From Bacillota bacterium (GTDB taxonomy: Bacteria; Bacillota; Clostridia; DUPQ01): a DNA stretch of 64,000 nucleotides. How positions within the stretch are numbered: the first letter of the stretch is position 1; each line of letters starts with the position of its first letter. Under the pieces are notes generated by a model, which had not been told where the DNA came from, did not search any database, and saw nothing but the letters and a program-made list of their open reading frames with translations. A program made the position numbers and the translations under genes. The stretch spans positions 118,138-182,137 of the forward strand of contig JAKJBR010000001.1 of the NCBI GenBank assembly GCA_022706885.1, written 5' to 3'. Below are positions 7,330 to 37,387 of this stretch, piece by piece.

Positions 7330-7480
7330 AAAAATCATCATGTACTACATTGCTTGGTGCAATCCTATGGGATTAGCTGTCGGGTTTGGGCCACCAAGCT
7401 GCCCATCTTATCCAGATTCACCCCTTTTCGGTTGGTTCCCCCACTATCAAAACAGATATTCGGATATCCATAAAATAGTA
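7330..7480 (-). ncRNA. candidate cyclic-di-AMP (ydaO/kimA-type) riboswitch in the 5' leader of the CPA antiporter gene
   Basis: Minus-strand reading contains GUGGGGGAACCA ... AAGGGGUGAAUC ... ACCCGACAGCUAAUCC, resembling the conserved GGGGGA-CCA / GGGG-GAAUC / ACCCG-CCGA blocks of ydaO-type c-di-AMP riboswitches as I recall them; leader is 330 nt; boundaries approximate. Confidence 0.45.
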
Positions 7481-11301: not shown

Positions 11302-11439
11302 ATGTTTAAACAAAGACCGCAGAATCAAAAGGATGAGAGCAAAGTATTTGAAGACTTATTATCAGCAAGTGAAAGCAGTATGGATTTCTGGTTTAATGAT
11401 GTAGATGATGAGCAGTGGAATGATGAGAAAAACGATTAA
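11302..11439 (+). CDS. candidate small acidic protein (45 aa, MFKQRPQNQKDESKVFEDLLSASESSMDFWFNDVDDEQWNDEKND); 3' half is part of repeat A
   Basis: ORF below track threshold found by eye; RBS-like GAAGGA upstream; its 3' portion plus 21 nt downstream recurs at 22357..22422. Confidence 0.3.
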   Translation: MFKQRPQNQKDESKVFEDLLSASESSMDFWFNDVDDEQWNDEKND

Positions 11440-11460
11440 ATAACTATTTACACTTCTTGA
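11380..11460. repeat. direct repeat copy A (atggatttctggtttaatga...ataactatttacacttcttga), left boundary of GC-rich island
   Basis: about 90% identical to 22357..22422 apart from a 15-nt indel (cagtggaatgatgag). Confidence 0.8.
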
Positions 11461-11552
11461 GATACGGTTTGTCAAGGGGATTTTTTACCCCTTACATTAA
11501 AACGCAAGAAGTATACAGTTGAGTATTTCGGTTCAATCTGACTCCAATGGTT

Positions 11553-12074
11553 TCATTCATGTGATCTCAACGCTTCCTTCAGCATTGAATGGATGTTTAA
11601 TGATTCCGGCAGATCATTCATGCCGCGATGCACCCATTCTTCTATAAGTCCGGAGATCATACCTGCGAGAAGAGCCCGTATATAGGCCACATTGTCATCT
11701 TCATCTGGTGAGGGGCCACAGCAATAGAATATGTGATCACGTAATAAATAAGTCAAGTTATTCTGATTAAGAAGGAGCAGCAGTTCCTTCTGTTTTTTAA
11801 ATTCATCCAACAGTGACGGCCAGAAGTTTTCATAGAATTCCTTTTCCGGCTTTTGGGAAAACTCCTGCCACCATTCATTGGTACAGGCGGCGAGATACTT
11901 AACAAGAATATCCTGTTTGGAGTTGTAGTTTCTATAAAAAGAAACTCTGCCGACACAGGCTTTTTCACAAAGCTCCGTAACGGTGATTTTGTCAAATGAC
12001 TTAGTTTTCATGAGGCCAATCAAGGCACTGGTAAGGCTTTCAAGTACAAATTCGTGTGATGTTACTGCTTTCAT
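11553..12074 (-). CDS. TetR/AcrR-family transcriptional regulator
   Basis: ORF 11553..12164 trimmed to ATG 12074 (MKAVTSHEFVLESL...KITVTELCEKACVGRVSFYRNY HTH); GC-rich codon usage. Confidence 0.7.
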   Translation of the reverse strand: MKAVTSHEFVLESLTSALIGLMKTKSFDKITVTELCEKACVGRVSFYRNYNSKQDILVKYLAACTNEWWQEFSQKPEKEFYENFWPSLLDEFKKQKELLLLLNQNNLTYLLRDHIFYCCGPSPDEDDNVAYIRALLAGMISGLIEEWVHRGMNDLPESLNIHSMLKEALRSHE

Positions 12075-12225
12075 AGTGATACAAATTCCCCGTTTTGTTT
12101 CTTTTTTTGACGAAGCAATCCTTTCTCTTGATTTCAGGAAAAAGGATTGATACACTTGCACCATGAAACAAATGTATCAGTTGGCTGGGCGCTTGTCAAG
12201 CATAATATAATATCGGGAGGTTTCT

Positions 12226-13707
12226 ATGAGAAGCAAGGAGAGCAAACCAAAAATCGATAAGTCTTTATGGCTTACAACAAAAAGCGAAAGAATCAACTAC
12301 TATGTTGGCGATTTGGGGCGCACATTGGAGGGCTATATCGTCACGGCGTTTATGACGCTCTTTCTGTTATTTCAGGGAATCAACCTGATCTCGATTTCCG
12401 CGGCAATCCTGGTTGTCAAGGTCATCGATGCGCTCGACGACGTAATTTTCGGTTTCTTGATCGACAAACTCAATATCAAAAAGAGCCGACTTTTTGGAAA
12501 AATAGCCGGTGAAGGCAAATACTTGCCTTGGTACCGCGCGACCTTCTTCCTGTTCCCGATTTTTACGGTCCTTTTCTTTCTTATGCCGCAGGGCGTGCCA
12601 AACGCCGTGAAGATCGGTTGGTTTATGGTGACCTATCTTCTGTATGATATCAGTTATACGCTTGTTGAGGTCCCCATGAACTCAATGATTGTGTCGCTGA
12701 CGGACAACACCGAGGAGCGTAACTCAATCCTTCAGACGAAAGGCATCATCGGCGGCATTGCGACGGTTTTAGCCGGCATCATCTGGACATTCCTTATTAG
12801 CGAACATGTAGGAATCTCCATAAGACTGGTTGCGATTGTTTCGTCTGTCATTTTCTTCTTCATGATGCTACCGCTGGCGACAAAAGTGAAGGAACACAAT
12901 ACCGAACTGAAAAACACCGAGGACGAAAAGAGCACGGAGCGTTACAATTTCCGTGATATGATTAAATGCGTAAAGACAAACAAATACATGGCTGTCATCC
13001 TTCTCAGCACGCTTATTATGGGGGCTCTGGCGACGGGCAGTTCTCTCGGAACCTATGCGTCATACTATCTGTACGGTGACTCGATGATTCTTATCATTCC
13101 AATCGCGATCGCCTTTATCCCTCAGCTGATTGCCCAGCTCAATACCGATAAGTTATGCCGCAAATTCGGAAAGAAAAAGGTTTATATGGTCTGCGGGTTG
13201 ACCGCAGCTCTAATCTACGGTTCTATTTTCTTTGCCGGTTACAACAATTTTGTCGTTATTACAATCCTGCTGGTGCTGCAGGCTGCGCCGGGCAATGTTG
13301 CCAATATCGCAAAGACTTTTTTCACTCCGGATACGATTGAGTATACGCGCTATAAGACCGGAAAAGACTGCTCGGGGATTTTCTTCTCCCTCAATGCGTT
13401 CGTTAACAAGTTAACGACAAGCATCGCTTCTTCTTTGGGCGTGTTCATCCTGGGGCTTTCCGAATGGATTACTGTTGAGGCAGACAGCTTTGAGGAGCTT
13501 GCCGAGCTCAATGTAGTGCAGACCCAGAGTGCACTGGACACTCTTTGGATTGTCTTTATGCTGATTCCCGCACTTGGCACACTGCTGAGCGTTGTGGTTA
13601 TGGCATTCTATAAGCTGAAGGATGACGACGCAAAACTTATGGCTCAATGTAATGCCGGTGAGATTAGCCGCGAGGAATGCGAGACCAGATTGTCGCGGAA
13701 ATACTGA
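12226..13707 (+). CDS. glycoside-pentoside-hexuronide (GPH) family cation symporter (MFS superfamily, MelB-like)
   Basis: 493 aa, 12 predicted TM segments; N-terminal YYVGDLG...VIDALDDVIFGFLIDK motif typical of GPH sugar symporters. Confidence 0.75.
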   Translation: MRSKESKPKIDKSLWLTTKSERINYYVGDLGRTLEGYIVTAFMTLFLLFQGINLISISAAILVVKVIDALDDVIFGFLIDKLNIKKSRLFGKIAGEGKYLPWYRATFFLFPIFTVLFFLMPQGVPNAVKIGWFMVTYLLYDISYTLVEVPMNSMIVSLTDNTEERNSILQTKGIIGGIATVLAGIIWTFLISEHVGISIRLVAIVSSVIFFFMMLPLATKVKEHNTELKNTEDEKSTERYNFRDMIKCVKTNKYMAVILLSTLIMGALATGSSLGTYASYYLYGDSMILIIPIAIAFIPQLIAQLNTDKLCRKFGKKKVYMVCGLTAALIYGSIFFAGYNNFVVITILLVLQAAPGNVANIAKTFFTPDTIEYTRYKTGKDCSGIFFSLNAFVNKLTTSIASSLGVFILGLSEWITVEADSFEELAELNVVQTQSALDTLWIVFMLIPALGTLLSVVVMAFYKLKDDDAKLMAQCNAGEISREECETRLSRKY

Positions 13708-13725
13708 AAAACAGGAGACTGTATC

Positions 13726-15312
13726 ATGCTTGAAAGAGACAACGTCAGATTCTTTGATATGACTTCTGTCTCTCCGACGCAGGGAATCGAACGGAGGGCA
13801 ACGGGTCAGTATGTCAAAGCCGGCCTTGCACGGCTGTTTCCCGGTGAGGTGTTCAGAAATATATGTGTCAGTTTTAACGGGAGCGGGGAGTATCATCCAA
13901 AGGTTTCTCTGATTCAGCGTATGTTCGGCGGCGGAAAAAAGATTGAAGGCCTACCCGCATATTATGAAGTGGAACTGGAGCATCTGACCGGTAGCCATAC
14001 TGAGACGCTCATTGTTTGGTCGCCTGCAGCCTGGAACGGTCGTTTTGCGGGAACCGCCGGAGGAGGGACCGGTATCGGAGGACGAAGTTATCTGACAAAG
14101 CCGGATAACGCCCAGCGTGGTTTGACGGTCCCCTTTGCCGTCATGAACGGTTTTACTGCAGCGACGATGTTCGCGGGAAACAATGACGGCGGGTTCCACG
14201 ATTACACCATCGACCCGAAAACCGGAACGCTCAACCGTGAGTTGTACGAAAACTGGAGACTTCGGAGCACTCATAATATGACTGTTTTCGGAAAAGCTAT
14301 AGCAGAGCTTCTCCATGATCGCCCTGTCAGATGGACCTATATGAACGGCGGCTCCGGAGGCGGAAGACAATCGCTCATGGAAGTCCAGAATTATCCGAAA
14401 GACTATAACGGCATCTGGGCATCCTGCCCCGCAATCAACTGGCAGAAGTTGATGGTCTCCGGTTTTTGGGCTCAGACGCTCATGAACGAGTATGGAATCA
14501 CATTTTCAGCTAAAAAGAATCAGTTTTTCATTGACGCCGTTCATGAAGCAAACGGCGGTGCGGACAAGTATTATCGCTTGGAAAAGATCCCTGAATTTGA
14601 TTTTTATTCCTGTGTGGGGAAAAATATTGGTAGCGATTCCATTACAGAAGCCGATGCAAGATTCATGACGGAACTTTGCCGTGGCCCGAGAAAGGCTGAC
14701 GGCAGTTTCCTTTGGTACGGTTTTGCACCCGGCGTGAAGAATTGGCAGTGTGTGATTCCTATCGGCACCTATTATTATCCGATGCCATGGTCGCGGCACG
14801 TAAAGCCTTTTTTTCTCGCCCCAATCTGCGCCAGATGGATCACGGAAACACCGGGTCAGAAGTTTGATGGCATGAAGATTAGGGAATTCACCGAGCTTTT
14901 TGAAGAAGGCGTCAGAAAGTTTTCGGATAACCTTGGTGATAATCCTGCAATCGATGCATTTGTGAATGCCGGCGGCAAACTCATAATCGACCACGGTATG
15001 GACGACCCGCTGATACCGGTGGAAGGGACGCTGGACTATTACGGGAAGCTTCTCACGCATTTTGGTTCGCAGAGTGCGTTGGACCGCTTTATGAGACTAT
15101 ACATAACCCCCGGTGACAGCCATGGTAATTGCTTCGGCAACGGACCCGGAATTACCGAAAAAGATGGCATGCTTGCTCTGATGAAGTGGGTCGAAGAGGG
15201 AAAGGCTCCGGAAGAGATACGAAAAGTCAGAGTGGGCAGAAAGAACGGGGAGACGCTGGAGGAAAGCAGCCAGAGTCCTTACCGGGACGAAAGGCATAAC
15301 AATGAAGACTGA
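13726..15312 (+). CDS. tannase/feruloyl-esterase family hydrolase (no signal peptide)
   Basis: 528 aa; nucleophile motif YMNGGSGGGRQSLMEVQNYPKDYNGIWASCPA matches the GCSTGGRQGLMEAQRYP...G...PA signature of the tannase/feruloyl esterase family. Confidence 0.7.
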   Translation: MLERDNVRFFDMTSVSPTQGIERRATGQYVKAGLARLFPGEVFRNICVSFNGSGEYHPKVSLIQRMFGGGKKIEGLPAYYEVELEHLTGSHTETLIVWSPAAWNGRFAGTAGGGTGIGGRSYLTKPDNAQRGLTVPFAVMNGFTAATMFAGNNDGGFHDYTIDPKTGTLNRELYENWRLRSTHNMTVFGKAIAELLHDRPVRWTYMNGGSGGGRQSLMEVQNYPKDYNGIWASCPAINWQKLMVSGFWAQTLMNEYGITFSAKKNQFFIDAVHEANGGADKYYRLEKIPEFDFYSCVGKNIGSDSITEADARFMTELCRGPRKADGSFLWYGFAPGVKNWQCVIPIGTYYYPMPWSRHVKPFFLAPICARWITETPGQKFDGMKIREFTELFEEGVRKFSDNLGDNPAIDAFVNAGGKLIIDHGMDDPLIPVEGTLDYYGKLLTHFGSQSALDRFMRLYITPGDSHGNCFGNGPGITEKDGMLALMKWVEEGKAPEEIRKVRVGRKNGETLEESSQSPYRDERHNNED

Positions 15313-16495
15313 AACAATCAATCAGGTGATGCAAGGCTATATTGATTCACATGAACTAGCCGGTGGAGCGTTGCATGTGTTTTCAGAAGCTGAAACGATT
15401 TTCCGCGGAAAATGGGGATTAAGCGATATTGAAGCAACGAGATCCGTGGAATATGACAGTATTTTCAGACTCATGTCGATGACAAAGCCGATCGTAGCTG
15501 CCGCAGTGATGATTTGTGCAGAGAGGGGACTTATCGACATAGATGATCCTGTTTCGCATTATCTGCCGGAATTCGCGGATATGCAGGTGAATCATGATCC
15601 GAAATATGCCAACGGACCGGACGTACTTAAAAGAATACCTCTGCTTATTCCGTTTTTCAATATCAGTAAAGTGAAAACAAAACCTGCCTCCCGCGACATC
15701 ACAGTCCGCGATCTCTTAAGCCATTCCTCGGGAATGCAGCAGGGAACGGTCAGTCTGCTGAGCCTTCTGAAAGGTCTTCCGCAGTTCGGATCGCTCAGGG
15801 AAGAAGTTTCGTATTTTGCTGCTCAACCCCTGGATTTTGATCCGGGAACCGGAACGGGTTATTCACCTCTCGCCGGTTTTGATGTGCTTGGATATCTCAT
15901 TGAATGTGTGAGTGGCACACGGCTTGAAGGTTTTGTTCGCACAGAAATCTGCGATCCTCTCGAAATGTTTGATACAGGCTTTTTCCTATCAGAAGAGAGA
16001 CAGAAAAGGCTTGTCAAGGTATATAAAAGGCATGCTGGCAGCCTGAAAGATGTCACCGGAACAAAGAATGATGTGGCAGGAGCCATGCACCAGAAGGCCA
16101 TCTCTTTTGAACATGGCTGTGGCGGAATGTATTCCACTCTTGATGATTATAGCCATTTTGCACAGATGCTGCTCTGTGAAGGTTCCTATAAAGGCAGACG
16201 GATTCTGCAGCCGGAAACGGTTCGAATGATGCGAAGTGAAGCGCCTCTCGTCCATCTTGAGCCCGAACCCGGCTTTGTATGGGGACTGGGAATGAAGATT
16301 CGTCAGAATCCTGAAAAGGGCGGCAGTCCTGCGACAGCCGGAACCTACGGCTGGAGCGGGGCTTTTGGCACGCACTTCTTCATCAGCCCTATTGACAGGC
16401 TGGGCGTTGTATTTATGACGAACCGCGCCGATTTGGAAGGGTCAGGGTCCTATATCAGCAAGAGAATCGAAGAACTGGTTTTTGAAGGGGACTGA
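15302..16495 (+). CDS. beta-lactamase-family serine hydrolase (class C-like esterase)
   Basis: 397 aa; S-x-x-K motif SMTKPIVAAAV; overall PBP/beta-lactamase fold pattern. Confidence 0.7.
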   Translation: MKTETINQVMQGYIDSHELAGGALHVFSEAETIFRGKWGLSDIEATRSVEYDSIFRLMSMTKPIVAAAVMICAERGLIDIDDPVSHYLPEFADMQVNHDPKYANGPDVLKRIPLLIPFFNISKVKTKPASRDITVRDLLSHSSGMQQGTVSLLSLLKGLPQFGSLREEVSYFAAQPLDFDPGTGTGYSPLAGFDVLGYLIECVSGTRLEGFVRTEICDPLEMFDTGFFLSEERQKRLVKVYKRHAGSLKDVTGTKNDVAGAMHQKAISFEHGCGGMYSTLDDYSHFAQMLLCEGSYKGRRILQPETVRMMRSEAPLVHLEPEPGFVWGLGMKIRQNPEKGGSPATAGTYGWSGAFGTHFFISPIDRLGVVFMTNRADLEGSGSYISKRIEELVFEGD

Positions 16496-16500
16496 GAACT

Positions 16501-17556
16501 ATGATTACACCAGAAACAACAATAAAAGAAATCCGCAGCATACTGCAGGACAATCTGTTCAGCCAGTTGATCTATGACCTTTCAGAAAGGGGAGCCGGCA
16601 GATTCTCTGACGAAAACAGAACCCTGAAAGATATTCAGGTTGCAGATCCGGCATGGAATGCGGACGATATGGTTTTCGGTCTGAACACACTGTGCCGTAA
16701 TGCTGCAAGAGGAAGGGTTTTATATGATGTATACAGGTCTGATGAGACTGCTGCGTGCCCCGGAAAAGCGAATGTTAAACTGGTCCATTTTCCGGCAGAA
16801 ACTGCATGCAACTACGAAAAAGACTGCGTACGAAGAACGCTGATACTCGCCTCGGGCGGCGCTTACGGTGCAGTCTGCAATCTGCCCGAGGCATTTCCCG
16901 CAGCGGCAGAAGCTGCAGCGCTTGGAATAGACTGCCTTTGTCTGACATATCGGGTCGGGGCTTTGGCACCGCTTTTCCCAAAGCCGATGGAGGATCTGGC
17001 AGCCGCGATTCGTTTCCTTTTCAGCAATGAACAGAATCTTGATGTTAGCATGAAGCATTACGCAGTCGGGGGCTTTTCCGCGGGGGGACATCTTGCTGCC
17101 TGCGGGGGCATTAAGGAACTGGGATATCGGAAATTCAACCTTCCTGCGCCAGAAGCAGTGCTCCTTGCTTATCCCCTGCTTAATGTTTGGAAAGCCTTGG
17201 AACAGTTGCCGGAACCGTATCGCAAGCTTATGCTTAAAGGTCTTCTCGGGTCTGGAGTTGATGAATCTTATTGTGGACCTTATAACGTTAATCAGAATAT
17301 TGACTGCGACTATCCGCCGTGTTTTATTGTTCACGCAAGAGATGACGAGACGGTGGATTGTGAACTCAGCTCAGCTTTTGCTCGTGCTCTCACAACAGCA
17401 GATGTCCCCTGTGTTATAGAAAAACCTGAACACGGCGGGCATGGTTTTGGCAGAGGCGGCAAAACAGAAGCCGAAGGATGGATTAAAAGAGCAATTACAT
17501 TTTGGAAGGAACAGAGACAGAGACATGAAACTGTATCATTTACGCGTAAATCATAG
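16501..17556 (+). CDS. alpha/beta-hydrolase fold esterase
   Basis: 351 aa; GGFSAGGHLA nucleophile elbow, HARDDETVD and HGGHGFG triad elements. Confidence 0.65.
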   Translation: MITPETTIKEIRSILQDNLFSQLIYDLSERGAGRFSDENRTLKDIQVADPAWNADDMVFGLNTLCRNAARGRVLYDVYRSDETAACPGKANVKLVHFPAETACNYEKDCVRRTLILASGGAYGAVCNLPEAFPAAAEAAALGIDCLCLTYRVGALAPLFPKPMEDLAAAIRFLFSNEQNLDVSMKHYAVGGFSAGGHLAACGGIKELGYRKFNLPAPEAVLLAYPLLNVWKALEQLPEPYRKLMLKGLLGSGVDESYCGPYNVNQNIDCDYPPCFIVHARDDETVDCELSSAFARALTTADVPCVIEKPEHGGHGFGRGGKTEAEGWIKRAITFWKEQRQRHETVSFTRKS

Positions 17557-20134
17557 AACAAATCCCTGCGTTGACGGGGATATTGAGTTTTCCTGGCGCA
17601 TCAGTTCTGAACACAAGAACATTGTGCAGCGTTCTTACCGAATCCTTGTGGAAGGCGAGGAAGGAACGATGTGGGACAGCGGTACAGTGGAGAGCAGGCG
17701 GCAGAGTTTTGTCGCATATGACGGACCGAAGCTTCCCTCAAAATCTGAATATCGGTATACTGTGACCGTGTGTACCGCTGACGGTGATTCCTCCGGTGCA
17801 TCCGGACGTTTTTATACAGGTCTTGACCTTGCAGACTGGAAAGCATGCTGGGTTGAATCCACCTTTATGAGAAATCCGCATCAGATGTTCTCTGACGGTA
17901 TCGAAAACCCGGTGCTCTCTTTTACGAGAGGTTTTGAAATCCGCGGGAAACTTCGCTCAGCCGTCATGTATGCCACCTGTTATGGCGTTTATCATCTGAT
18001 AATCAACGGAGAAAGAGCGGACGACAGGGAATTTGCTCCGGAGTTCACCGCTTACAGCAAGCTTTTGTATTACCAAAGATACGATGTGTCCGGGCTGTTG
18101 CATACGGGAAAAAACAAGCTGGAGATGCTGGTGGGAGACGGCTGGTACTTCAACAGCCAGACCGTACCTGTCGGCTGCGATCACGAAAAGCCCGCAATCC
18201 TGTATCAATTGGAACTTGAATATGCAGATGGAACCCGCGAGACTGTTTTCAGCGACGGCAGTGAGGAGTGTCGCCAGACAAATATCCTGTATTCGGATCT
18301 GTTCGTCGGAGAAAAAATCGATCTGACAAAGCCTTATTCGGAGCCCTTGAGACCGGTGCTCTGTGATTATCCCTTCGATATTCTCCGGGCTCAGGCACTT
18401 GATCCGGTTAGGGCTGTTGAAATCTTCTCAGTTAAGAAGGTCATTCAAAGCCCAAAGGGCGAACTTATTTATGATTTCGGTCAGGTAATTGCCGGCAGAT
18501 GCCGAGTCTTGCTACGGGAAGAACGCGGAACGGAAGTGCGCATCCATCATACGGAAGTTCTGGATAAAGATGGCAATTATTTTGCGGCGCTATCTTCCCG
18601 CCAGCGCGACACCGTAATCTGCAGCGGGGAAAAGACTCTCTATGAACCAATCTTTACCTTTCACGGCTTTCGCTACATCATGATCGAAGGCGCAAGAAAT
18701 ATCCGCCCTGAAGATGTGACTGCCGTCCTTCTTTCCACGGAAAAGGAGAACAAAGGCAGATTCAATTGCAGCAATCCGAAGCTGAACCGGCTGTATCAAA
18801 ACATTCGGTATTCCCAGAGAAACAATATGATGTCAATCCCGACAGACTGCCCGCAGCGCGAAAAAGCAGGATGGACAGGTGATGTTCTGGTCTATAATGC
18901 CGCAAGCATGCTGAACGAAGAAATGACACCTTTCTATGAAAGCTGGCTTTCCAGTCTCCTTGCAGATCAGCAGGAAAGCGGGGCGGTACCGATTACCTGC
19001 CCCTCGACAAAAATGTATGACTTCATGCTTAGAAAGATTAGCCGCGAGTATGATAAGTCAAAGCCGGCCAAGGGGCTGGAGGATATTCTGCCCGCGGAAG
19101 GCGAATCCGCAGCAGGAGGAGAACTGCCTTCGGTTGCCGGGTGGAGCGATGTGATTATAGAACTTCCGTACAGTATGTACAGGCTGACAGGCAATGACCT
19201 GATTCTTAAGAAATGTCTGCCCGCTATGAAGAAATATGCTGATCAGGTAATCCGCACAGCGGCGACCCGCAGAGGCGGCGCTTCACTTGATGAAAACGAT
19301 CGGTACCTCTGGAATACCGGTTTCCATTTCGGAGAATGGCTTGTTCCGGGGAAGGAAAAGCCCGGATTTGAAGCCTGTAAGGAAACGACCTGGTATATCG
19401 CTCCTTTTTACGCATTCCGTTCGGTAAACCTGCTGGCAGAAATCTGTGAAAAGCTTGGCGACGAAAAGAGCGCTGCGTATTACGGAAGTATCGCCCGAAA
19501 AATGAAAGCAGCAATCGAGGCAGAAGTGCTTCCTCTGCAACACGAATATGCAGACTATATGGGACGATACATCCTTGCCCTGGCATTTGAATTGGTTGAC
19601 GGAGACCTGGAAAAGGAATACGCCGGGAAACTCATTGAATTGATTCATTCAAACGATTATCGTATAGGAACCGGTTTTCTTGCAACGCCCTACATTCTGA
19701 AAGTACTGGACAGCATCGGCCGCCACGATCTGGCATTGAAGGTCCTGATGAACCCGAACTGCCCGGGCTGGCTCTATGAAGTCAGCATGGGAGCTACAAC
19801 GATATGGGAAAGCTGGAGTGCCGTAGCGCCTGACGGAACGCCGCAAAAGATCAGCTTTGACCATTATGCTTTCGGTATTGTGGATGAATATTTCTTTTCC
19901 GTTCTTGCGGGAGTCAGACCGCTTGAGCCGGGTTTTGCCAGATTTGAGGTCAGCCCGGACCGTGTGATTGGTCTGGACCGGCTGAAACGGGAGTTTATCT
20001 GCGAGGCCGGCCTTATTTCTGTCGAATATACAGACTCCGTTCTGACGGTAACAGTTCCGCCCAATACCCGTGCAGTGATCAAATGGAACGGAGAAACAAA
20101 GGAGGTTGGGAGTGGTACATGGAGATTCGAATAA
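17525..20134 (+). CDS. alpha-L-rhamnosidase (GH78)
   Basis: ORF 17441..20134; start placed at ATG 17525 (MKLYHLRVNH); length about 870 aa and conserved PTDCPQREKAGWTGD motif typical of bacterial GH78. Confidence 0.8.
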   Translation: MKLYHLRVNHRTNPCVDGDIEFSWRISSEHKNIVQRSYRILVEGEEGTMWDSGTVESRRQSFVAYDGPKLPSKSEYRYTVTVCTADGDSSGASGRFYTGLDLADWKACWVESTFMRNPHQMFSDGIENPVLSFTRGFEIRGKLRSAVMYATCYGVYHLIINGERADDREFAPEFTAYSKLLYYQRYDVSGLLHTGKNKLEMLVGDGWYFNSQTVPVGCDHEKPAILYQLELEYADGTRETVFSDGSEECRQTNILYSDLFVGEKIDLTKPYSEPLRPVLCDYPFDILRAQALDPVRAVEIFSVKKVIQSPKGELIYDFGQVIAGRCRVLLREERGTEVRIHHTEVLDKDGNYFAALSSRQRDTVICSGEKTLYEPIFTFHGFRYIMIEGARNIRPEDVTAVLLSTEKENKGRFNCSNPKLNRLYQNIRYSQRNNMMSIPTDCPQREKAGWTGDVLVYNAASMLNEEMTPFYESWLSSLLADQQESGAVPITCPSTKMYDFMLRKISREYDKSKPAKGLEDILPAEGESAAGGELPSVAGWSDVIIELPYSMYRLTGNDLILKKCLPAMKKYADQVIRTAATRRGGASLDENDRYLWNTGFHFGEWLVPGKEKPGFEACKETTWYIAPFYAFRSVNLLAEICEKLGDEKSAAYYGSIARKMKAAIEAEVLPLQHEYADYMGRYILALAFELVDGDLEKEYAGKLIELIHSNDYRIGTGFLATPYILKVLDSIGRHDLALKVLMNPNCPGWLYEVSMGATTIWESWSAVAPDGTPQKISFDHYAFGIVDEYFFSVLAGVRPLEPGFARFEVSPDRVIGLDRLKREFICEAGLISVEYTDSVLTVTVPPNTRAVIKWNGETKEVGSGTWRFE

Positions 20135-20135
20135 T

Positions 20136-21266
20136 ATGAAAAATCATAGTATCCGACCCGGAAAGCCTTTCCTCGACACGGAAGGAATGCGCATTCAGGC
20201 CCACGGGGGGAGTATCTTTTTCGATGCTGAAACCGAGACATATTATCTGTATGGAGAAAACAAGGAATTCTCTGTTCCCGGTAGCGGTATCTGGACTTGG
20301 GGAGTTCGTGCCTATGCGTCAAGGGACTTCTACAACTGGGAGGATAAGGGATTGATAGTTGAGCCTGTGCTTGACGATCCGTTGTCACCGCTCAATCCCC
20401 GGACGGCATGTTTGGATCGGCCACATATCCTGTTTAACCAAAAGACGGAGAAATATGTCTGCTGGATGAAGATCATGCACAGAGATGACAGCAGGCGGCA
20501 GACGGTTACGATAGCGGTCGCAGACAGCTTTTTAGGACCGTATTCGATTGTACAGAGCGGGGTATCTCCGCTTGGCATGAATGCCGGGGATTTTGATCTT
20601 GTCGATGATGAGAACGGAAAAGCTTATTATTACTTTGAACGAGTCCATTCAGAGCTGATTTGCGCGGAGTTGACAGCAGATTACACAGATGTGACAGATG
20701 TCTGCTCCCATCATTTCCCGCATCCGTATCCGCCTTTTGTTCGGGAAGCGCCGGCACACTTTAAGCGAAATGGGCTGCACTATCTTATTACATCCGGAAC
20801 AACCGGGTATTTTCCAAACCGCAGCGAAGTTGCAGTGTCGGAAAGCTGGCATGGCCCTTTTACTGTTCTCGGAGATCCACATCCCGGCGATCCGACCGGC
20901 ACATCCTTTCACTCGCAGATTTCCTCGGTGTTCAAGATGCCTGGAAAGAAGAATCTGTATGTGGCGTTGGCAGACCGCTGGATGCCGAATGCGATGGAAA
21001 TACCGGCAGCCTTCTGTGAGGAGGTTTTTGAGGGCTTCTTTTCGGGCCGAGTCCCGCTCAGCGAAGGCGAGCATTTCCGGGAATCTCTGATCAGGAAATA
21101 CGGGCTACAAGGTTACCGGAGTATTCTTGTGCAGAATGATACGGACACTTCCGTCGCAGACTATGTCTGGCTTCCGCTGAGGTTTGAGGAACCGGCTCCG
21201 CAGCACCCGAATGGAATGATTTTCATAGACTGGCTGGATGAATGGAGAATTGAAGATTACTCATAA
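20136..21266 (+). CDS. GH43-like five-bladed beta-propeller glycoside hydrolase (arabinofuranosidase/xylosidase-like), cytoplasmic
   Basis: ORF 20106..21266 trimmed to ATG 20136; sequence pattern compatible with GH43 fold; family assignment tentative. Confidence 0.5.
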   Translation: MKNHSIRPGKPFLDTEGMRIQAHGGSIFFDAETETYYLYGENKEFSVPGSGIWTWGVRAYASRDFYNWEDKGLIVEPVLDDPLSPLNPRTACLDRPHILFNQKTEKYVCWMKIMHRDDSRRQTVTIAVADSFLGPYSIVQSGVSPLGMNAGDFDLVDDENGKAYYYFERVHSELICAELTADYTDVTDVCSHHFPHPYPPFVREAPAHFKRNGLHYLITSGTTGYFPNRSEVAVSESWHGPFTVLGDPHPGDPTGTSFHSQISSVFKMPGKKNLYVALADRWMPNAMEIPAAFCEEVFEGFFSGRVPLSEGEHFRESLIRKYGLQGYRSILVQNDTDTSVADYVWLPLRFEEPAPQHPNGMIFIDWLDEWRIEDYS

Positions 21267-21294
21267 GAATTATTTATAAAAGGAGACGATGTAA

Positions 21295-22092
21295 TTGGAA
21301 TGTACTTTGTTTTACACGGAACTGTCAAGAGGGATATATCGGATTTCCGACAGTCTTCACGGACCGAATTCTGACGGATTTTCAGACGCACCGGGCAGGG
21401 CAACACAGAATTCATATTTGATACAAGGACAGGAAAGGGCTGCTTTAATTGATTTGGCAGTAGATACGCCTGACTTGTTTTCCTATGCTTGTCAGCTTAC
21501 AGGCCTTCCGACACAGGTACTGTTAACCCATGGGCATCCGGATCATGTTTACAATCTTGAGTCGGTTGGTGAAGCATGGCTTCATCCTGATGATTATGAT
21601 CTGGTCCTGAAAGGGATTCCGGGAATATGTTTTCCCATACATAATGTCGTACTGAATCCGCTGAAGGACAGGCAGAAGATTGATCTGGGTGAGCGAATCC
21701 TTGAGGTTATCCATATGCCCGGGCATACACTGGGGAGCGTTCTGTTTTGGGACAAACTGTCTGGTTTTTTGTTCAGCGGGGATTCCTGTTCAAGACGATT
21801 GCTCTACGGCCTAACGCCTACGGTCCCGTTGGATGAACATTGTAAAAAAATTGCCGGGCTTGCAGAGCTTCCCATTAATCATATTTACACAGCACATGAC
21901 CGATGCGGTCTGCCCAAGGCACACTTGCTGCGGAGTTGTGAACTTATCCGACAGGAACTTCCAAAGTCGGCAACAACAGTTATCATACCAGGAATAGGCA
22001 TTATGCGAAATCTCCGATGGGGAGATGAAAATACTCTGGATTACTTTGACATGGCGGTTGAAGAGTCCTATGTTGAAGGATTGTTGAAATAA
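21295..22092 (+). CDS. MBL-fold metallo-hydrolase
   Basis: 265 aa; HxHxDH motif LLTHGHPDHV, later HMPGHT. Confidence 0.7.
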   Translation: MECTLFYTELSRGIYRISDSLHGPNSDGFSDAPGRATQNSYLIQGQERAALIDLAVDTPDLFSYACQLTGLPTQVLLTHGHPDHVYNLESVGEAWLHPDDYDLVLKGIPGICFPIHNVVLNPLKDRQKIDLGERILEVIHMPGHTLGSVLFWDKLSGFLFSGDSCSRRLLYGLTPTVPLDEHCKKIAGLAELPINHIYTAHDRCGLPKAHLLRSCELIRQELPKSATTVIIPGIGIMRNLRWGDENTLDYFDMAVEESYVEGLLK

Positions 22093-22188
22093 GAAAAAGA
22101 CAATACTCATTTCTTACAACTGCTTTCCAATTCACCACAAATGAGCCACAGTCATATGTATTTGGTGGTACAAACCACCCTTTACATA

Positions 22189-22358
22189 TTAGCTCTTGAA
22201 AACCCATTCTCTTTGAACATGGAAAGAAACAAAGAAAAGTATTGTATACACCCCTGTTTTAATCAATGTGATTATTATTTCTCTTTCGGCAGGGATAATC
22301 AAGGAAAGTAAAGTTACAAGACCTGCCGATGTAAGCATAACGGATACGGATAATACAT
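22189..22358 (-). pseudogene. duplicated fragment (about 50 codons) of the C-terminal GtrA-like region of the downstream glycosyltransferase
   Basis: ORF 22189..22470 encodes VLSVSVMLTSAGLVTLLSLIIPAEREIIITLIKTGVYTILFFVSFHVQREWVFK, about 90% identical to the true C-terminus of ORF 22406..23485; about 158-nt tandem copy. Confidence 0.55.
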
Positions 22359-22581
22359 GGATTTTTGGTTTAATGACATAGATGATGAGAAAAACGGTTA
22401 AATAACTATTTACACTTCTTGAATACCCATTCTCTTTGAACATGGAAAGAAACAAAGAATAATATTGCATCCACCCCTATTTTAATCAATGTGATTATTA
22501 TTTCTTTTTCGGCAGGGATAATCAAGGAAAGTAAAGTTACAAGACCTGCCGATGCAAGCATAACGGATACGGATAATACAT
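22201..22581. repeat. tandem duplication of about 158 nt (22201..22358 and 22423..22581) separated by repeat copy B
   Basis: Direct comparison: acccattctctttgaacatggaaagaaacaaagaa...gatacggataatacat present twice at about 92% identity. Confidence 0.8.
22357..22422. repeat. direct repeat copy B (atggatttttggtttaatgacatagatgatgag-aaaaacggttaaataactatttacacttcttga), right side of island
   Basis: Matches 11380..11460; contains the stop codon of the GT gene. Confidence 0.8.
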
Positions 22582-23485
22582 AGTATTTGATAAGACACTT
22601 TTTATAATCACACTTATGTTTGAAAACCGAACTCTTATTGAAATTGAAATTAAAAAACGAGGATAACGCTCTGGCTATTACCGTACTTATAAGAATCCTT
22701 GTATTCTCTACATAATTTGCAAATATCAACAAAGACACATAGAAAACAATGTTGTCCAAAAGGAAAGATATTATTGAACTTAGCATGAACTTGAATATGA
22801 GCCTGTATATCCTGAAAGCATCTCGAACCGCCTTGAAATGCGACCCTACATTTTTATCCTCATATACGGTAGTTATTTCCACTTCCTTAAACGGAATACC
22901 TTCGGGTTTCATCTCTAAAAGCATATTGGTTTCATATTCAAAACGATCACCCTCAACTGAAAGAAGGAAAGGAATAAGTTTTACGGGAAATACTCTCAAT
23001 CCGGTTTGTGTGTCGTTAATATTTATTCCGCATCCCGTTTTGAAAACAAAGGAAGTTATCTTGTTTCCCAAAAAGCTTTTCGGGGGAACATCCGGTTGAT
23101 GGAAATTCCTTGCTCCCAATATAACCGTTTTGTCATCGGTCATGTGCTGCGAACATTTCAATATGTCTTCAGGAAGATGCTGTCCGTCCGCATCCGCTGT
23201 GACTACACCTTTAATATCTTTGTTCCGCTGCTGAATATATGAAAAGGCTGTTTTAAGAGCAGCTCCTTTTCCTTTATTCACTTCATGCTTTAACAGAGTG
23301 CACTGTTCCGTAGAAGATACTTCATCGAATATACCGTCATACTCCGGACCGCTTCCGTCATTTACCACTATAATATCGGAAAAGCCTTGTTCAATTAATC
23401 CCGAAACCGTCGTAAGAAGTTTCTGTGAGGGGTTTAATGACGGTATAACTGCGGTTATTCCAAGACCGTTATCTTTAAATGTCAT
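22406..23485 (-). CDS. family-2 glycosyltransferase with C-terminal GtrA-like membrane domain (polyprenol-phosphate sugar synthase-like)
   Basis: 359 aa; GT2 motifs AVIPSLNPS, VVNDGSGPEY, TADADGQH; C-terminal four-TM GtrA-like region. Confidence 0.8.
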   Translation of the reverse strand: MTFKDNGLGITAVIPSLNPSQKLLTTVSGLIEQGFSDIIVVNDGSGPEYDGIFDEVSSTEQCTLLKHEVNKGKGAALKTAFSYIQQRNKDIKGVVTADADGQHLPEDILKCSQHMTDDKTVILGARNFHQPDVPPKSFLGNKITSFVFKTGCGININDTQTGLRVFPVKLIPFLLSVEGDRFEYETNMLLEMKPEGIPFKEVEITTVYEDKNVGSHFKAVRDAFRIYRLIFKFMLSSIISFLLDNIVFYVSLLIFANYVENTRILISTVIARALSSFFNFNFNKSSVFKHKCDYKKCLIKYYVLSVSVMLASAGLVTLLSLIIPAEKEIIITLIKIGVDAILFFVSFHVQREWVFKKCK

Positions 23486-23500
23486 GATTATACTCCTTAT

Positions 23501-24919
23501 TTATTCCGATAGCATCTCCGCTACTTTCCACTTATTATTATACAGTATAAACACCAGGTCAAACGAATCTTCCAGATATCGCGTTTCATAGTATGTTTTA
23601 TGTATTGCACTGAAAGACATAGTGCATGTGAAACATGTTTCACTTACCGGACGGAAATCAATAACTTTAAGATACTTATACTCCAAAGTGGAACCCATTA
23701 CCCAGTACAGGCTTGCACATGCCGACTTAAGCCTGGACTGTAAAACACTGCCTTCAACAAGATATGCGTTTAATGTGGGGAAATATCCCCATATATCGCC
23801 TGTGGCGTTGACGGTAAAATTAATATATGTTTTGGCAAAATTCAGAGCATGCTGTTCGTGAGTGTTTTTCAGCTGCTCGTCTGCGGGGTAGTGATAGAAT
23901 ATATTCTTGCTATCGGAGGCCTTCGTTACCTCCAAAGACTTTCCGTTTACATCATAACATTCAATATCCGGTTCATAATACAAATCCTCCGCTGAGTATG
24001 TGTTTAACAAAGGAACCTGCGAGTATGTCGTTATATTCTCATACCCGGGATAATATGCTTCACCGTTTTCAATATACTTTTCCGTAAGTAATACTCCGTT
24101 TATATAAACCTTAACCTCTTTCGGAGCGGTGACTTTATATGAATAAGTTTCTTTTATAACTAAAGGGTAGGCATACTCGTTTTCCGTTTTGTTAAGTTCT
24201 AAAGGCAACCCCTTGTCGTCTTTAGCCGTTACTTCCGCCTCCAGGTATATACCCGGTATCTCATATTTCTTTCCCGTAGGTCGTTTATCAAAAGGCTGAT
24301 TGACATCTTCAAAACCTGTATATGCTACGGCATTGTCCGTGATATATGATTCACCCACTTTTATATTATTGACATACACATCGGCATATTCCGGTACCGT
24401 TATACTTAATGTTTTTTGCTCAGGTAAAAGCACCCAATCCAAAACGGTAAAGCTTGCGGTCTGCCAAAGATTGAAGCCGTATTTTGCGGAATTATCACCC
24501 TTGCTTGTCAGCACAACTTTACCTAAATCTGCCGAGTCGGTATAGATTATGTAGACCGGTGATGTGTCGGCATATTGCCCCGGCATCTTACGGTATTTAT
24601 ACTCTTCATTCTTAAGAAGTGAAAAGTATAATTGATTAATGACTGTGTTTTCCTCTTCAAATTCCGATACTTCAATCTTCTTGTTTTCAGCCATCAGGGC
24701 TCTTACGGTATCGTCATTGACGGTAGAGATAAACTCGTTCATATAGTTTTCCGGTCGGGATATTTCATAGGACTTTATATATTGCCAGAAGAAAACCAAA
24801 CCGACAAACACCGCAACAAGAAAGCATATTGAATATATAATCAAGCCTTTTACGAATTTACTCTTGGGTTTTCCCGCATTGTCTTTATTATGCATAACTG
24901 CTTTATCTCTCATAATCAC
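23501..24919 (-). CDS. hypothetical membrane-anchored protein (single N-terminal TM, large extracytoplasmic domain)
   Basis: 472 aa; TM anchor GLIIYSICFLVAVFVGLVFFW; no recognised motifs; ATGA overlap with upstream gene. Confidence 0.5.
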   Translation of the reverse strand: MIMRDKAVMHNKDNAGKPKSKFVKGLIIYSICFLVAVFVGLVFFWQYIKSYEISRPENYMNEFISTVNDDTVRALMAENKKIEVSEFEEENTVINQLYFSLLKNEEYKYRKMPGQYADTSPVYIIYTDSADLGKVVLTSKGDNSAKYGFNLWQTASFTVLDWVLLPEQKTLSITVPEYADVYVNNIKVGESYITDNAVAYTGFEDVNQPFDKRPTGKKYEIPGIYLEAEVTAKDDKGLPLELNKTENEYAYPLVIKETYSYKVTAPKEVKVYINGVLLTEKYIENGEAYYPGYENITTYSQVPLLNTYSAEDLYYEPDIECYDVNGKSLEVTKASDSKNIFYHYPADEQLKNTHEQHALNFAKTYINFTVNATGDIWGYFPTLNAYLVEGSVLQSRLKSACASLYWVMGSTLEYKYLKVIDFRPVSETCFTCTMSFSAIHKTYYETRYLEDSFDLVFILYNNKWKVAEMLSE

Positions 24920-25959
24920 CTTACCAAAAATGAAGTGGGAAGAGCCCTCGGACCGGTTACCGATGCACAGACATTGAGTACCTCACCCTCATAAATCATA
25001 AGTGTTGAGGAGCCGCCGTCTAAATTGGAAGCGTTGACTGCTCCGAAATCCAGCATAATATCCGCTAAGTCGGCATATGTGGCGCCCAGGGAGTTCATGC
25101 GTCTGCCGTCAACCACCAGCATCAGAACCGCTCCGTCGGCACGTTGTCCGATTGCCGTTCGGGGATTTAATCCGCTTATGAGGTCTTTTTCAAAACTCTG
25201 CACTTTTCCGTTTATAATCAAAGGGGGTCCGAAACTGACCGCCCACTGTATCTTGGCATCCATTGCCTCCTGTGTGGTCATCATGCCTACATGCAATATA
25301 CCCTTATCATCAAAGGCGGAGACATTCAGTTTTACATCGGGGTCACCCCAGACTACTTCACCGTTACATATAACCATACCGTCGGGAGTGCCTTCATGAC
25401 CGCCTCCCAAGGGATCATAGAAACCGCCCGCATTGATACCGGCAACGGCATCATACTTTTCCACCATTTCCGTAAGCTTTAAGCCTTTTCCTCCCAATTC
25501 GTCGGGAGTTCCCACAAATACTCTTAAGGGATCTTTTACTATAAGCATAACCGCTTCATAAAGGCTTCCCTTTATTCTGACAACCTCTATATCTTTTTCC
25601 TCCGGAACGGTATCTGTAATATCGGTATCCTCCCCCGAAGGAGGTAATGAAGAGGTAGGTGTGGGTATTTCAATTAAGGAGGTATCGGTTTTTTCTTTCG
25701 GTTCTTCTACAATCTCCGAAACAGTAAGGGTTGCAAGCTCTTCATCCGACAGATATATGTCGGCCAGAAAGCCTACAGCACTTGTTTCTCTTACCGACAG
25801 CACAAACAGTTTTTTTGCGGTAGGAGAAGGGCCTTTTACCAATACATATATAACTCCCAGCAGAGCCACAACTATTAAAGCTAAAGTGGTAAAGAAAACA
25901 GCCAGAGTTTTCAATATTACTGAAACCGCCCTTTTTGCAGCACCGAGTTTGTTTGTCAT
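24916..25959 (-). CDS. phosphodiester glycosidase family protein (DUF2233/NAGPA-like), membrane-anchored
   Basis: 347 aa; N-terminal TM; C-terminal region AGINAGGFYDP...ICNGEV...PPLIINGK resembles DUF2233. Confidence 0.5.
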   Translation of the reverse strand: MTNKLGAAKRAVSVILKTLAVFFTTLALIVVALLGVIYVLVKGPSPTAKKLFVLSVRETSAVGFLADIYLSDEELATLTVSEIVEEPKEKTDTSLIEIPTPTSSLPPSGEDTDITDTVPEEKDIEVVRIKGSLYEAVMLIVKDPLRVFVGTPDELGGKGLKLTEMVEKYDAVAGINAGGFYDPLGGGHEGTPDGMVICNGEVVWGDPDVKLNVSAFDDKGILHVGMMTTQEAMDAKIQWAVSFGPPLIINGKVQSFEKDLISGLNPRTAIGQRADGAVLMLVVDGRRMNSLGATYADLADIMLDFGAVNASNLDGGSSTLMIYEGEVLNVCASVTGPRALPTSFLVR

Positions 25960-26090
25960 AACAAGTCTCCTTACTTACCCTTCATATATTATATTCACAA
26001 AGAGAGGAATTTCCAATATAATATTGGTGCCGTTAAGGGGATATGCGGCAAAGAAAAGAAAGGTATTGTTATATAAAGTATAGTTGTCTT

Positions 26091-27398: not shown

Positions 27399-27484
27399 AT
27401 ATCGGTAACACTCGATTTTATAGCGCTTATTGTAACTAAAATATTAGTAAAAATGAACTTTTAATGAACTTTTCCTGCAAAGCG

Positions 27485-27512
27485 TTGACATAAATGCCTG
27501 TTATGATAGTAT
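27485..27512 (+). promoter_or_regulatory. sigma-70-like promoter (TTGACA-16-TGaTAGTAT) upstream of small ORF
   Basis: consensus -35, extended -10 read from sequence. Confidence 0.45.
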
Positions 27513-27601
27513 CAAACATATTAAAACAATCAAAATATTAACAGAAGCAATATAAGGCTTTAAGTCCGTGTATATATTTTATTAAACCGAGAGGTGAGAT
27601 A

Positions 27602-27709
27602 ATGGAAGCTAAAAAACCCAAAGTCAAAGCAAGAATAGCAGTATTCATAATTGTCGCTATCCTTATAGTTGCAGCGGCAGTGTTTCTGTTTTTGTTGCTG
27701 GGAAGATAA
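27602..27709 (+). CDS. candidate small hydrophobic membrane protein (35 aa, MEAKKPKVKARIAVFIIVAILIVAAAVFLFLLLGR)
   Basis: Below ORF-track size cutoff; strong RBS GAGAGGTGAG 6 nt upstream; own promoter; basic N-terminus plus single TM. Confidence 0.4.
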   Translation: MEAKKPKVKARIAVFIIVAILIVAAAVFLFLLLGR

Positions 27710-27771
27710 AGATCCGTTCCTGCATGAAAGACGGAAAGCTTGTTCCGGAAGAAAAAACCGATTGAGTGTTA

Positions 27772-29973: not shown

Positions 29974-29980
29974 AAAGTCC

Positions 29981-31090: not shown

Positions 31091-31203
31091 TTTTTCTTCT
31101 TTCTTATCAACAAAATATATTTGAATATATATTATCATAAAACATAACATCATTGATTGTAAATAAGGCGAGTATCCATTAAACTTAACATAGCAGGAGG
31201 TAT

Positions 31204-37233: not shown

Positions 37234-37387
37234 TTTTTTACATATTGACTTTTTGCAATATTTCGTGATTAACGGAATGAGATTCCGAAAAAATTGTCGG
37301 AATTCTTTCTTATAGTATAAAAAAAAGCATTTTTGTCAGTAGACATATATCGGCAATAACAATAGCATGATACTCGAAAGGAGTATT

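Follow-up and report, generated by a model that had tools for sequence, protein, structure and literature searches.

A block of eight genes in the genome of an uncultured member of the Bacillota (Clostridia, DUPQ01) raises the question which compound it serves to degrade, how it is controlled and how it came to lie between ordinary core genes. The block was studied in a window, by which we mean the whole analysed stretch of 64,000 nucleotides of contig JAKJBR010000001.1 (assembly GCA_022706885.1). It comprises 10,733 bp of inserted DNA of foreign composition (positions 11461..22193) and is referred to as the island in the following. A minus-strand TetR-family regulator gene faces seven plus-strand genes encoding a sugar symporter and six enzymes, and together these genes (11553-22092) occupy nearly the whole insert. 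We regard it as rather probable that the island is an acquired, TetR-controlled operon whose products import acylated alpha-L-rhamnosides and dismantle them inside the cell.

Gene content of the island and its recurrence in Firmicutes

All eight genes were found by Pfam and NCBIfam at the places and in the families given to them by an earlier note on this DNA. Neighbouring genes of the operon overlap by up to 32 nt or are separated by up to 28 nt, and there is no convincing internal terminator, so that the seven genes probably form one transcription unit. The first of them (12226-13707, plus strand) encodes a cation symporter whose sequence clearly places it in the GPH family (MFS_2, PF13347, 162.9 bits against a cut-off of 27, E=1e-47; TIGR00792 gph, 183 bits, cut-off 231) and weakly resembles glucuronide transporters. 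Presumably it imports glycosides, which in our proposal would be small, ester-decorated and alpha-L-rhamnose-containing. As had been noticed before, the N-termini of the six enzymes do not resemble signal peptides (maximal Kyte-Doolittle hydropathy of 10 residues within the first 45 residues at most 1.34). The earlier suggestion of uptake by the symporter and subsequent processing in the cytoplasm is in line with this and gains support from one of the esterases.

Three of the enzymes are serine esterases. The first (13726-15312, plus strand) belongs to the tannase/feruloyl esterase family (PF07519, 147.7 bits against a cut-off of 29.8, E=6e-43), and among solved structures its relatives are MHETase and feruloyl esterases of the FaeB type (about E=1e-21). 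It shares with these enzymes the PF07519 profile and the aligned Ser210 (GGSGG), His466 and Asp427, which correspond to the motifs GCSEGG, NH-C and GMSD of MHETase, respectively. Unlike them it has no signal peptide, and the cysteine preceding the catalytic serine in MHETase is replaced by Gly209. We take this cysteine to be one half of the disulfide flanking the catalytic Ser and His in the PF07519 family; with glycine in its place this disulfide cannot form in the island enzyme. The motif G[GAS]SGGG was present in all 120 nearest homologues and a hydrophobic N-terminus was absent from 119 of them. The enzyme thus belongs to a clade of its own, the features of which agree with a location in the cytoplasm.

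The second esterase (15302-16495, plus strand; PF00144, E=8e-64) is a family VIII-type carboxylesterase with a class C beta-lactamase fold. It possesses the S-x-x-K motif (SMTK at 59) and W-x-G (WSG at 351) instead of KTG, and its nearest relatives are esterases and not beta-lactamases: top matches in the PDB were the carboxylesterases 4IVI, 7PP3, Est-Y29 and 1CI8 (E=1e-44 to 1e-28). While fold and both motifs are those of family VIII enzymes such as 4IVI, Est-Y29 and 1CI8, the gene differs from theirs in being part of a glycoside operon and in lying, in several lineages, directly upstream of the gene for a hydrolase of the metallo-beta-lactamase (MBL) fold described below. The third esterase (16501-17556, plus strand) is an alpha/beta hydrolase of the BD-FAE/Abhydrolase_3 type (PF20434, 60.3 bits against a cut-off of 26.8, E=2.5e-16) with a G-x-S-x-G nucleophile elbow (GFSAG at 191); it weakly resembles NCBIfam models of pectin and xylan acetylesterases and of an arylesterase. 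We propose that the cytoplasmic esterases remove acyl groups from the imported glycosides; besides the family VIII enzyme, the tannase-type enzyme would act on aromatic groups and the BD-FAE enzyme would be of the acetyl or feruloyl type.

The alpha-L-rhamnosidase of family GH78 (17525-20134, plus strand, 869 aa) is made up of an N-terminal Ig domain, an N domain, a concanavalin-like domain, the (alpha/alpha)6 catalytic domain and a C domain and lacks a CBM67. All five Pfam domains scored above their cut-offs (271.7, 112.1, 81.9, 76.7 and 38.5 bits). The best PDB match was 3W5M (E=1e-99), presumably a Streptomyces enzyme active on gum arabic. In the proposed pathway this enzyme would remove rhamnose in the cytoplasm.

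The next gene (20112..21266, plus strand) starts either with GTG at 20112, which has a good ribosome-binding site, or with ATG at 20136. Its product had been taken as a GH43-like hydrolase pointing to arabinosyl or xylosyl substrates. This interpretation did not hold: no PDB chain of a GH43 enzyme specific for arabinofuranose or xylose matched at E<=1e-3, and the canonical Asp base is absent. Instead, all matches up to this threshold were exo-beta-1,3-galactanases of subfamily GH43_24, plus one unnamed glycosyl hydrolase (3NQH). The GH43_24 structures BT3683 (6EUI), Pc1,3Gal43A (7BYV) and Ct1,3Gal43A (3VSF) matched with E=1e-36 to 1e-17; 6EUI is BT3683 and 7BYV the Phanerochaete enzyme (PMC7939473), and a literature search on the PDB codes 6EUG and 6EUF found no paper. 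Enzymes of GH43_24 have no Asp base and employ Glu as acid and Gln as base, and their -1 subsite is fully conserved (E57, E102, R103, Y126, D158, E208, W229 and Q263; PMC7939473).

The catalytic apparatus of GH43_24 is kept in the island enzyme. Its AHGG, which stands for the Asp base, aligns with AHGG/AHGA of BT3683 and Pc1,3Gal43A, and Glu204 (REAP) as acid, Gln261 as base and an Asp as pKa modulator (Asp152) are present, as are the counterparts of E57, R103 and D158. The -1 subsite retains five of the eight residues; in place of E102 and W229 stand Asp94 and Tyr225, respectively, and there is no GYG loop to carry Y126. These changes were identical in seven other members of the clade (eight in total). 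They concern the residues which read the C4-OH and C6 of galactose, so that the island enzyme is to be called GH43_24-like and its glycone cannot safely be called beta-galactose. Further differences from the exo-beta-1,3-galactanases are the lack of a carbohydrate-binding module and of a signal peptide and the position of the gene, which was always found beside a tannase-family gene. With its remodelled pocket, the enzyme might remove a second sugar.

The last gene of the operon (21295-22092, plus strand) encodes an MBL-fold binuclear metallo-hydrolase with the motif HGHPDH. The seven metal ligands H75, H77, D79, H80, H140, D159 and H197 (numbering from the alternative start at 21307) were invariant in 41 homologues, and the AlphaFold2 model (pLDDT 96) matched MBL structures with a probability of 1.0. 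An identity as glyoxalase II is contradicted by the score of TIGR03413 (42 bits against a cut-off of 200.8) and by TM values to glyoxalase II structures of at most 0.5. An MBL hydrolase had been regarded as an oddity in an operon of carbohydrate-active enzymes. It turned out to be a recurrent and tightly linked member of the gene set in 8 of 12 lineages. Moreover, a homologue with 64% identity runs in frame, with no stop codon, into the N-terminus of a GH78 enzyme in two loci (L117, 231-1409; L118, 434-1423; fetched loci are numbered with the prefix L). We propose that the MBL-fold enzyme carries out another hydrolysis, connected with those by the esterases and the rhamnosidase.

Species-representative genomes scanned with GH78, together with the neighbourhoods of tannase homologues, revealed that the same families co-occur in shuffled order in at least 12 Firmicutes lineages. 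Carriers of this module were an uncultured Clostridia metagenome-assembled genome (MAG), Oscillospiraceae, Faecalibacterium, Oribacterium, Acutalibacteraceae, Ca. Fimenecus, Eubacterium, Roseburia lenta, Blautia, Erysipelotrichaceae and Agathobacter-like contigs. Its core consists of the MFS_2/GPH symporter, the tannase-family enzyme, one or two BD-FAE esterases, GH78 and the family VIII esterase, which the MBL joins in the 8 lineages mentioned above. The gene pairs esterase-MBL and tannase-GH43 are near-contiguous. Accessory members are GH3, a PETase-like esterase, a second rhamnosidase resembling GH106 and the GH43_24-like enzyme, whose gene always adjoins that of the tannase-type protein; regulators are of either the TetR or the AraC type. 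Directly behind the module, Erysipelotrichaceae carry genes for RhaA, a rhaD-like Aldolase_II protein and a rhaB-like FGGY kinase. In an Agathobacter-like contig (L116, 2029-7201) the esterase/GH78/MBL module abuts genes for ParB, TnpV, an actin-like segregation protein, MobC and a relaxase and is located on a mobilisable element.

Two proteins encoded within modules (L114, 5798-8524; L115, 7326-9986; 886-908 aa, 63% mutual identity) gave no Pfam hits; they are distantly related to the BT4145-type alpha-L-rhamnosidase model and to the PDB chains 6Q2F and 5MQM. They may represent a second rhamnosidase. One tannase homologue, of Roseburia sp. NSJ-9 according to its NCBI name, was indexed in 1,830 blocks of the assembly collection. 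The recurrence in at least 12 lineages indicates that the gene set is not a chance mix. A literature search found no published characterisation of this gene set, nor of a genetically defined pathway for acylated rhamnosides.

Substrate of the pathway

All versions of the module combine cleavage of alpha-L-rhamnosides with several different ester hydrolases, including one of the aromatic-acyl type, and a sugar symporter; together with the lack of signal peptides in the island enzymes, this points to small imported rhamnosides decorated with acyl groups. Judged by families, motifs, missing export signals and conserved neighbours, the substrate would be acylated alpha-L-rhamnosides, most plausibly plant phenolic or terpenoid glycosides. 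Plausible candidates are acylated flavonoid or anthocyanin rhamnoglycosides, phenylethanoid glycosides and acylated or bidesmosidic saponins. The theme of rhamnosides with aromatic and other esters, put forward in the earlier note, is reinforced by the recurrence of the module with rhaA, rhaD and rhaB, GH3 and GH106-like genes.

Operons for cytoplasmic rhamnosidases in Gram-positive bacteria, e.g. the ram genes of Lactiplantibacillus plantarum, comprise GH78, a GPH/MFS transporter and a local regulator. The island resembles them in its GPH-type symporter, a GH78 enzyme without signal peptide, a local regulator and the predicted intracellular cleavage. In contrast to these operons it adds three serine esterases, the GH43_24-like enzyme and the MBL-fold hydrolase and lacks a beta-glucosidase; its regulator is a TetR repressor, while other versions of the module have AraC-type regulators. 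Since a cytoplasmic GH78 beside a GPH-type transporter is the arrangement for the use of flavonoid rhamnoglucosides in lactobacilli, plain, non-acylated rutinosides or neohesperidosides could be the substrate, too, with the esterases and the MBL as unrelated passengers serving detoxification. The GH3 genes near some versions of the module would agree with this. We consider it unlikely, however: the esterases have stayed with GH78 in 12 or more differently ordered contexts, as would be expected if they shared a substrate, the pairs esterase-MBL and tannase-GH43 are near-contiguous, and the island itself has no beta-glucosidase.

The relatives of the GH43_24-like enzyme suggest another substrate, oligosaccharides of type-II arabinogalactan (arabinogalactan proteins, AGP, or gum arabic), from which GH78 would take the terminal rhamnose while the GH43_24-like enzyme would cut beta-1,3-galactan in the cytoplasm. 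That the only solved relatives with a name are exo-beta-1,3-galactanases, that the best PDB match of GH78 is 3W5M and that the symporter is weakly similar to glucuronide transporters would fit such a role. But three of the eight residues of the -1 subsite are changed throughout the clade (E102 to Asp, W229 to Tyr, Y126 loop absent), and in about 12 versions of the module there is no recurrent beta-glucuronidase, beta-1,6-galactanase or arabinofuranosidase as partner. Furthermore, the three to five esterases per locus would have no role on AGP, so that we hold this substrate to be improbable.

Little probability is likewise left for the second option of the earlier note, feruloylated oligosaccharides, here those of arabinoxylan or pectin side chains, from which the esterases would free ferulate and acetate and the GH43 enzyme arabinose or xylose. 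The tannase family includes feruloyl esterases such as FaeB, the BD-FAE/Abhydrolase_3 enzyme is weakly similar to acetylxylan and pectin acetylesterases, and pairs of GH43 and feruloyl esterase, even fusions, occur in arabinoxylan polysaccharide utilisation loci of Bacteroides (PMC7815789). However, as mentioned above, the island GH43 enzyme has no structural match to an arabinofuranosidase or xylosidase, and the modules contain no genes for xylanases, xylosidases or the processing of galacturonic acid. GH78, on the other hand, recurs in nearly all full-length modules, sometimes with a GH106-like rhamnosidase and rhaABD-like genes. Both the AGP and the feruloylated arabinoxylan or pectin oligosaccharides therefore match fewer of the conserved features than acylated rhamnosides do.

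Starting from acylated rhamnosides, a more far-reaching interpretation can be offered tentatively. The island may be one copy of a widespread mobile Firmicutes pathway for multiply acylated rhamnosides which would include three activities new to their families: a tannase-type esterase without the cysteine and without signal peptide, a glycosidase derived from GH43_24 for a sugar other than beta-galactose, and an MBL-fold enzyme acting on the rhamnoside, e.g. as lactone or ester hydrolase. An action of the MBL on the rhamnoside is suggested by its linkage to the esterase and by the in-frame junction with GH78. If acylated plant rhamnosides are indeed the substrate, the module would provide a genetic handle on the processing of dietary polyphenol and saponin glycosides by butyrate-producing Firmicutes, as well as new enzyme specificities in three families. 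Cultured carriers exist (e.g. Roseburia lenta NSJ-9), which makes the question of the substrate directly testable.

Operator, insertion site and origin of the island

The regulator gene (11553-12074, minus strand) is divergent from the operon and encodes a protein of 173 aa, starting with ATG at 12074 behind the ribosome-binding site GGGGA. Its TetR_N domain scored 22.4 bits (E=1e-4), slightly below the Pfam cut-off of 24; the four PDB matches are all of the TetR family, the best being 3KKC (E=3e-6). Homologues with 48-50% identity hold the same position in the loci L017-L024. An operator for this protein had been predicted between 12075 and 12225, and a search of the 151-bp spacer between tetR and the operon did reveal a palindrome of 32 bp at 12148..12179, TGATACACTTG-N10-CAAATGTATCA. 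Its motif, 11-nt arms separated by 9-10 nt, is unique in the window, with 0 occurrences expected by chance. It is conserved in L017, L018, L021 and L024, and conservation extends to three lineages besides that of the island. With a 9-nt spacer it occupies the corresponding tetR-operon gap of loci from Oscillospiraceae, Faecalibacterium, Acutalibacteraceae and Eubacterium bins, where the TetR proteins are only 48-50% identical to that of the island. Allowing for both spacers, the pattern was found in 11 TetR-bearing loci out of 118 fetched and in none of the 107 others, with one site per matching locus (the site in L022 was counted on both strands). With the spacer fixed at 10 nt it was confined to conspecific loci, the other lineages having 9 nt.

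A promoter scan found a TG-extended -10-like element, TACACT, in the left arm of the palindrome, 17 nt after TTGATT. On the other strand, the right arm contains TACATT (12176-12171), 17 nt after TTGACA (12199-12194), and the -35 element of this putative tetR promoter is the conserved TTTGTCAA. TTGATT-17-TACACT would thus be the promoter of the operon and TTGACA-17-TACATT that of tetR, with the operator overlapping both -10 elements. According to our model, the TetR-family repressor binds the one 32-bp operator covering the -10 boxes of the two face-to-face promoters and would thereby shut off its own gene and the seven-gene operon until a ligand releases it. A small TetR-family protein opposite its target operon and a palindromic operator over both promoters are likewise found in TetR/TetA divergent units, where the target is an efflux pump and not a catabolic operon as here.

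Downstream of tetR, close to the left junction within the island, lies a hairpin, AAGGGG-ATTTTTTA-CCCCTT (11473-11492), which may be a terminator. A T-run is absent after it on both strands.

The island differs sharply in composition from the host DNA, as stated in the earlier note. Mean gene GC content is 0.477 compared to 0.405 +/- 0.024 for 40 host genes (Mann-Whitney p=3e-6), GC3 is 0.50 compared to 0.415, and the shift is seen at all three codon positions. The tetranucleotide distance to the rest of the window amounts to 0.34-0.40 within the island, but to 0.12-0.17 in all other 4-kb windows. Uniform composition and enzymes of unrelated families, the two findings named in that note as speaking against its interpretation, were both not observed. 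Of the bounds proposed there (11461-22100), the start coincides exactly with the left junction (11460/11461), whereas the right end had been placed too far to the left; the actual junction is at 22193/22194.

The flanks consist of ordinary core genes, namely those for a walJ-like MBL protein, rlmH, cell-wall glycosyltransferases, an SLH protein, tyrS and the shikimate operon. Host DNA on the left of the target contains a small open reading frame (sORF) of 45 aa (11302..11439, plus strand), the C-terminal remnant of a RelB-family antitoxin, and on the right the intact native gene for a GT2 glycosyltransferase with GtrA domain (22406..23485, minus strand). The segment 11380..11460, left of the island, comprises the tail of the sORF and 21 nt of the reverse complement of the last GT2 codons (KKCK*). 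The direct-repeat families D3 and D5 align it to 22357-22422 at 91-98%, with one indel of 15 nt. Rightward past 22193/22194 follow a spare partial GT2 3' tail (22194..22365, 172 nt, 94% identical to 22417-22588 by repeat family D1 and alignment), the second copy of the sORF tail and GT2 stop region (22357..22422, by repeat families and alignment) and the intact GT2 gene. Junction alignments showed that 6 bp, TCTTGA, are duplicated at the insertion point (11455..11460 and 22194-22199). The unit of GT2 tail and sORF tail copies (223-238 bp) was found in every conspecific contig examined and varies by strain, with one extra copy in L010 and a 15-nt indel variant in L006. The junctions fit equally well a tandem duplication of the convergent gene ends followed by insertion into the spare copy, and a Campbell-type crossover with a circle.

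The empty site was found in a sister species, which was located by a metagenome scan with the GT2 protein (GT2 80% identical, GC content 0.33-0.36). The island segment is absent from both sister contigs, L033 and L034. Both carry a full-length RelB gene (PF04221; 155 aa in L033, 168 aa in L034) with the same ...SSLDFWFNDIDD... tail as the 45-aa sORF; the regions concerned are 3090-3891 in L033 and 3104-3610 in L034. In L034 the RelB-family gene is convergent with GT2 and ends 12 nt from it, the same configuration as that of 22357-22422 plus the native GT2 gene in our window, and a gene for an AlbA_2/MarR protein is located between antitoxin and rlmH. In L033 a PemK/MazF toxin gene occupies the gap between GT2 and antitoxin, and genes for an APH-like kinase and a histidine phosphatase lie between antitoxin and rlmH. 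The rlmH-GT2 gap is therefore a variable toxin-antitoxin hotspot and the 45-aa sORF a decayed antitoxin.

Among the matches listed for the exact GT2 protein, every contig extending past GT2 carries the island. The copy in a conspecific MAG, 'Clostridiaceae bacterium AS08sgBPME_331', is 98.9% identical over the island and 97.6% and 98.1% over the flanks; this MAG is part of a biogas-reactor collection (PMC7038595). The empty site in the sister species and the occupied site in all these conspecific contigs indicate that the island arrived once the sister species had split off and that its inheritance has been vertical from then on. Horizontal acquisition, proposed earlier on the basis of composition, is thus well supported, being backed by the empty site and the junction scars as well. 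In our account, an ancestor of the biogas-reactor Clostridia population acquired the 10.7-kb catabolic island horizontally after this split and passed it on vertically; the island would have entered the spare duplicated GT2 3' end within the variable hotspot.

All relatives of the island genes that were found belong to Firmicutes (Clostridia and Erysipelotrichia), which speaks against a donor among Bacteroidetes, Actinobacteria or Proteobacteria as considered before. The best non-self protein identities form a mosaic from 49 to 77% (GPH 77%, GH78 74%, tannase 66%, MBL 64%, esterase 61%, GH43 54%, remaining island proteins about 50%), and the GC content of the closest relatives (0.47-0.53) resembles that of the island. 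A plasmid database contained no near match for the island DNA and only distant matches in Streptomyces (about 30%) for the tannase protein. The block might instead be ancestral with an odd composition and have been deleted in the sister species. Just one sister lineage with an empty site was found and the island has no mobility gene, which would be compatible with such a deletion, but both the GC shift of 7 points and the 2-3-fold tetranucleotide distance end exactly at the limits of 11461-22193, the island is flanked by the 6-bp duplication and duplicated target scars, its best homologues occur in other Firmicutes families with a GC content of 0.47-0.53, and the module adjoins a relaxase gene elsewhere; we therefore consider a deletion very unlikely. 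An antibiotic-resistance island, which the superficial Pfam names ('beta-lactamase', 'metallo-beta-lactamase', TetR, MFS pump) might suggest, was dropped as practically excluded on the NCBIfam scores, since models of class C and class B beta-lactamases reached 19-32 bits compared to cut-offs of 100-875, and, furthermore, the best structural relatives of the PF00144 protein are carboxylesterases, the transporter is of the GPH sugar symporter type and the genes are linked to GH78 across module versions.

The locus is of an ordinary type, a repressor-controlled catabolic island with three enzyme clades of uncharacterised specificity. It is a textbook case of a horizontally gained catabolic operon, cleanly delimited and with an empty site, junction scars and a conserved operator, and exposes a module common to many gut and digester Firmicutes.

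Several findings weigh against the account of an acquired, TetR-controlled operon for acylated rhamnosides. Most flavonoid rutinosides and phenylethanoid glycosides would require a beta-glucosidase, which the island lacks, and genes for rhamnose catabolism were not present in the window. The nearest characterised relatives are distant (PDB matches with E=1e-21 for the tannase and 1e-10 for the MBL), and the glycone of the GH43_24-like enzyme cannot be named from its sequence. In the PDB, Foldseek found no neighbours of the MBL model other than generic MBL structures (TM values of at most 0.63), so that no function can be transferred to it. The in-frame MBL-GH78 junction is only suggestive, since the two independent metagenome assemblies represented by L117 and L118 each show a different lesion downstream of it (a 1-nt indel and a stop). 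The operator pattern had no match in the Erysipelotrichaceae loci L031 and L032. With regard to acquisition, no near-identical donor occurred among the relatives found. Moreover, the window contains no tRNA that could provide att sites, and the insert lacks the signatures of an integrative mobile element: genes for a recombinase or transposase are absent, there is no room for a recombinase gene, and in place of terminal inverted repeats there is only the 6-bp duplication.

Other features of the window

The island borders a cell-envelope glycan cluster (22406-31153), which encodes the GT2+GtrA protein, a 472-aa protein without Pfam hits, an NAGPA phosphodiester glycosidase, a PIG-L-like deacetylase and a GT4 protein fused to a polysaccharide pyruvyl transferase; the SLH protein is encoded further on (37367-38560). 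On the other side of the island, a c-di-AMP riboswitch (RF00379, 66.8 bits) was detected at 7346-7475 (minus strand), upstream of a gene of the Na+/H+ exchanger family (5998-7257, minus strand).

A 461-aa protein with an N-terminal HTH_3 domain and a weak HipA_C-like kinase region (41998-43383, minus strand) may be a HipA-type toxin fusion. Three tandem paralogous open reading frames (46995-52429, plus strand; 583, 609 and 583 aa, 38-47% identical) gave no Pfam match, and each possesses an N-terminal membrane anchor or signal-like segment. Open reading frames between 56 and 62 kb, suspected by their size to be rhaB, rhaA and rhaD, were assigned by Pfam to the shikimate operon. Within its aroB-aroA-aroC genes, chorismate mutase, shikimate dehydrogenase and shikimate kinase are combined in one polypeptide (56658-58166, minus strand).

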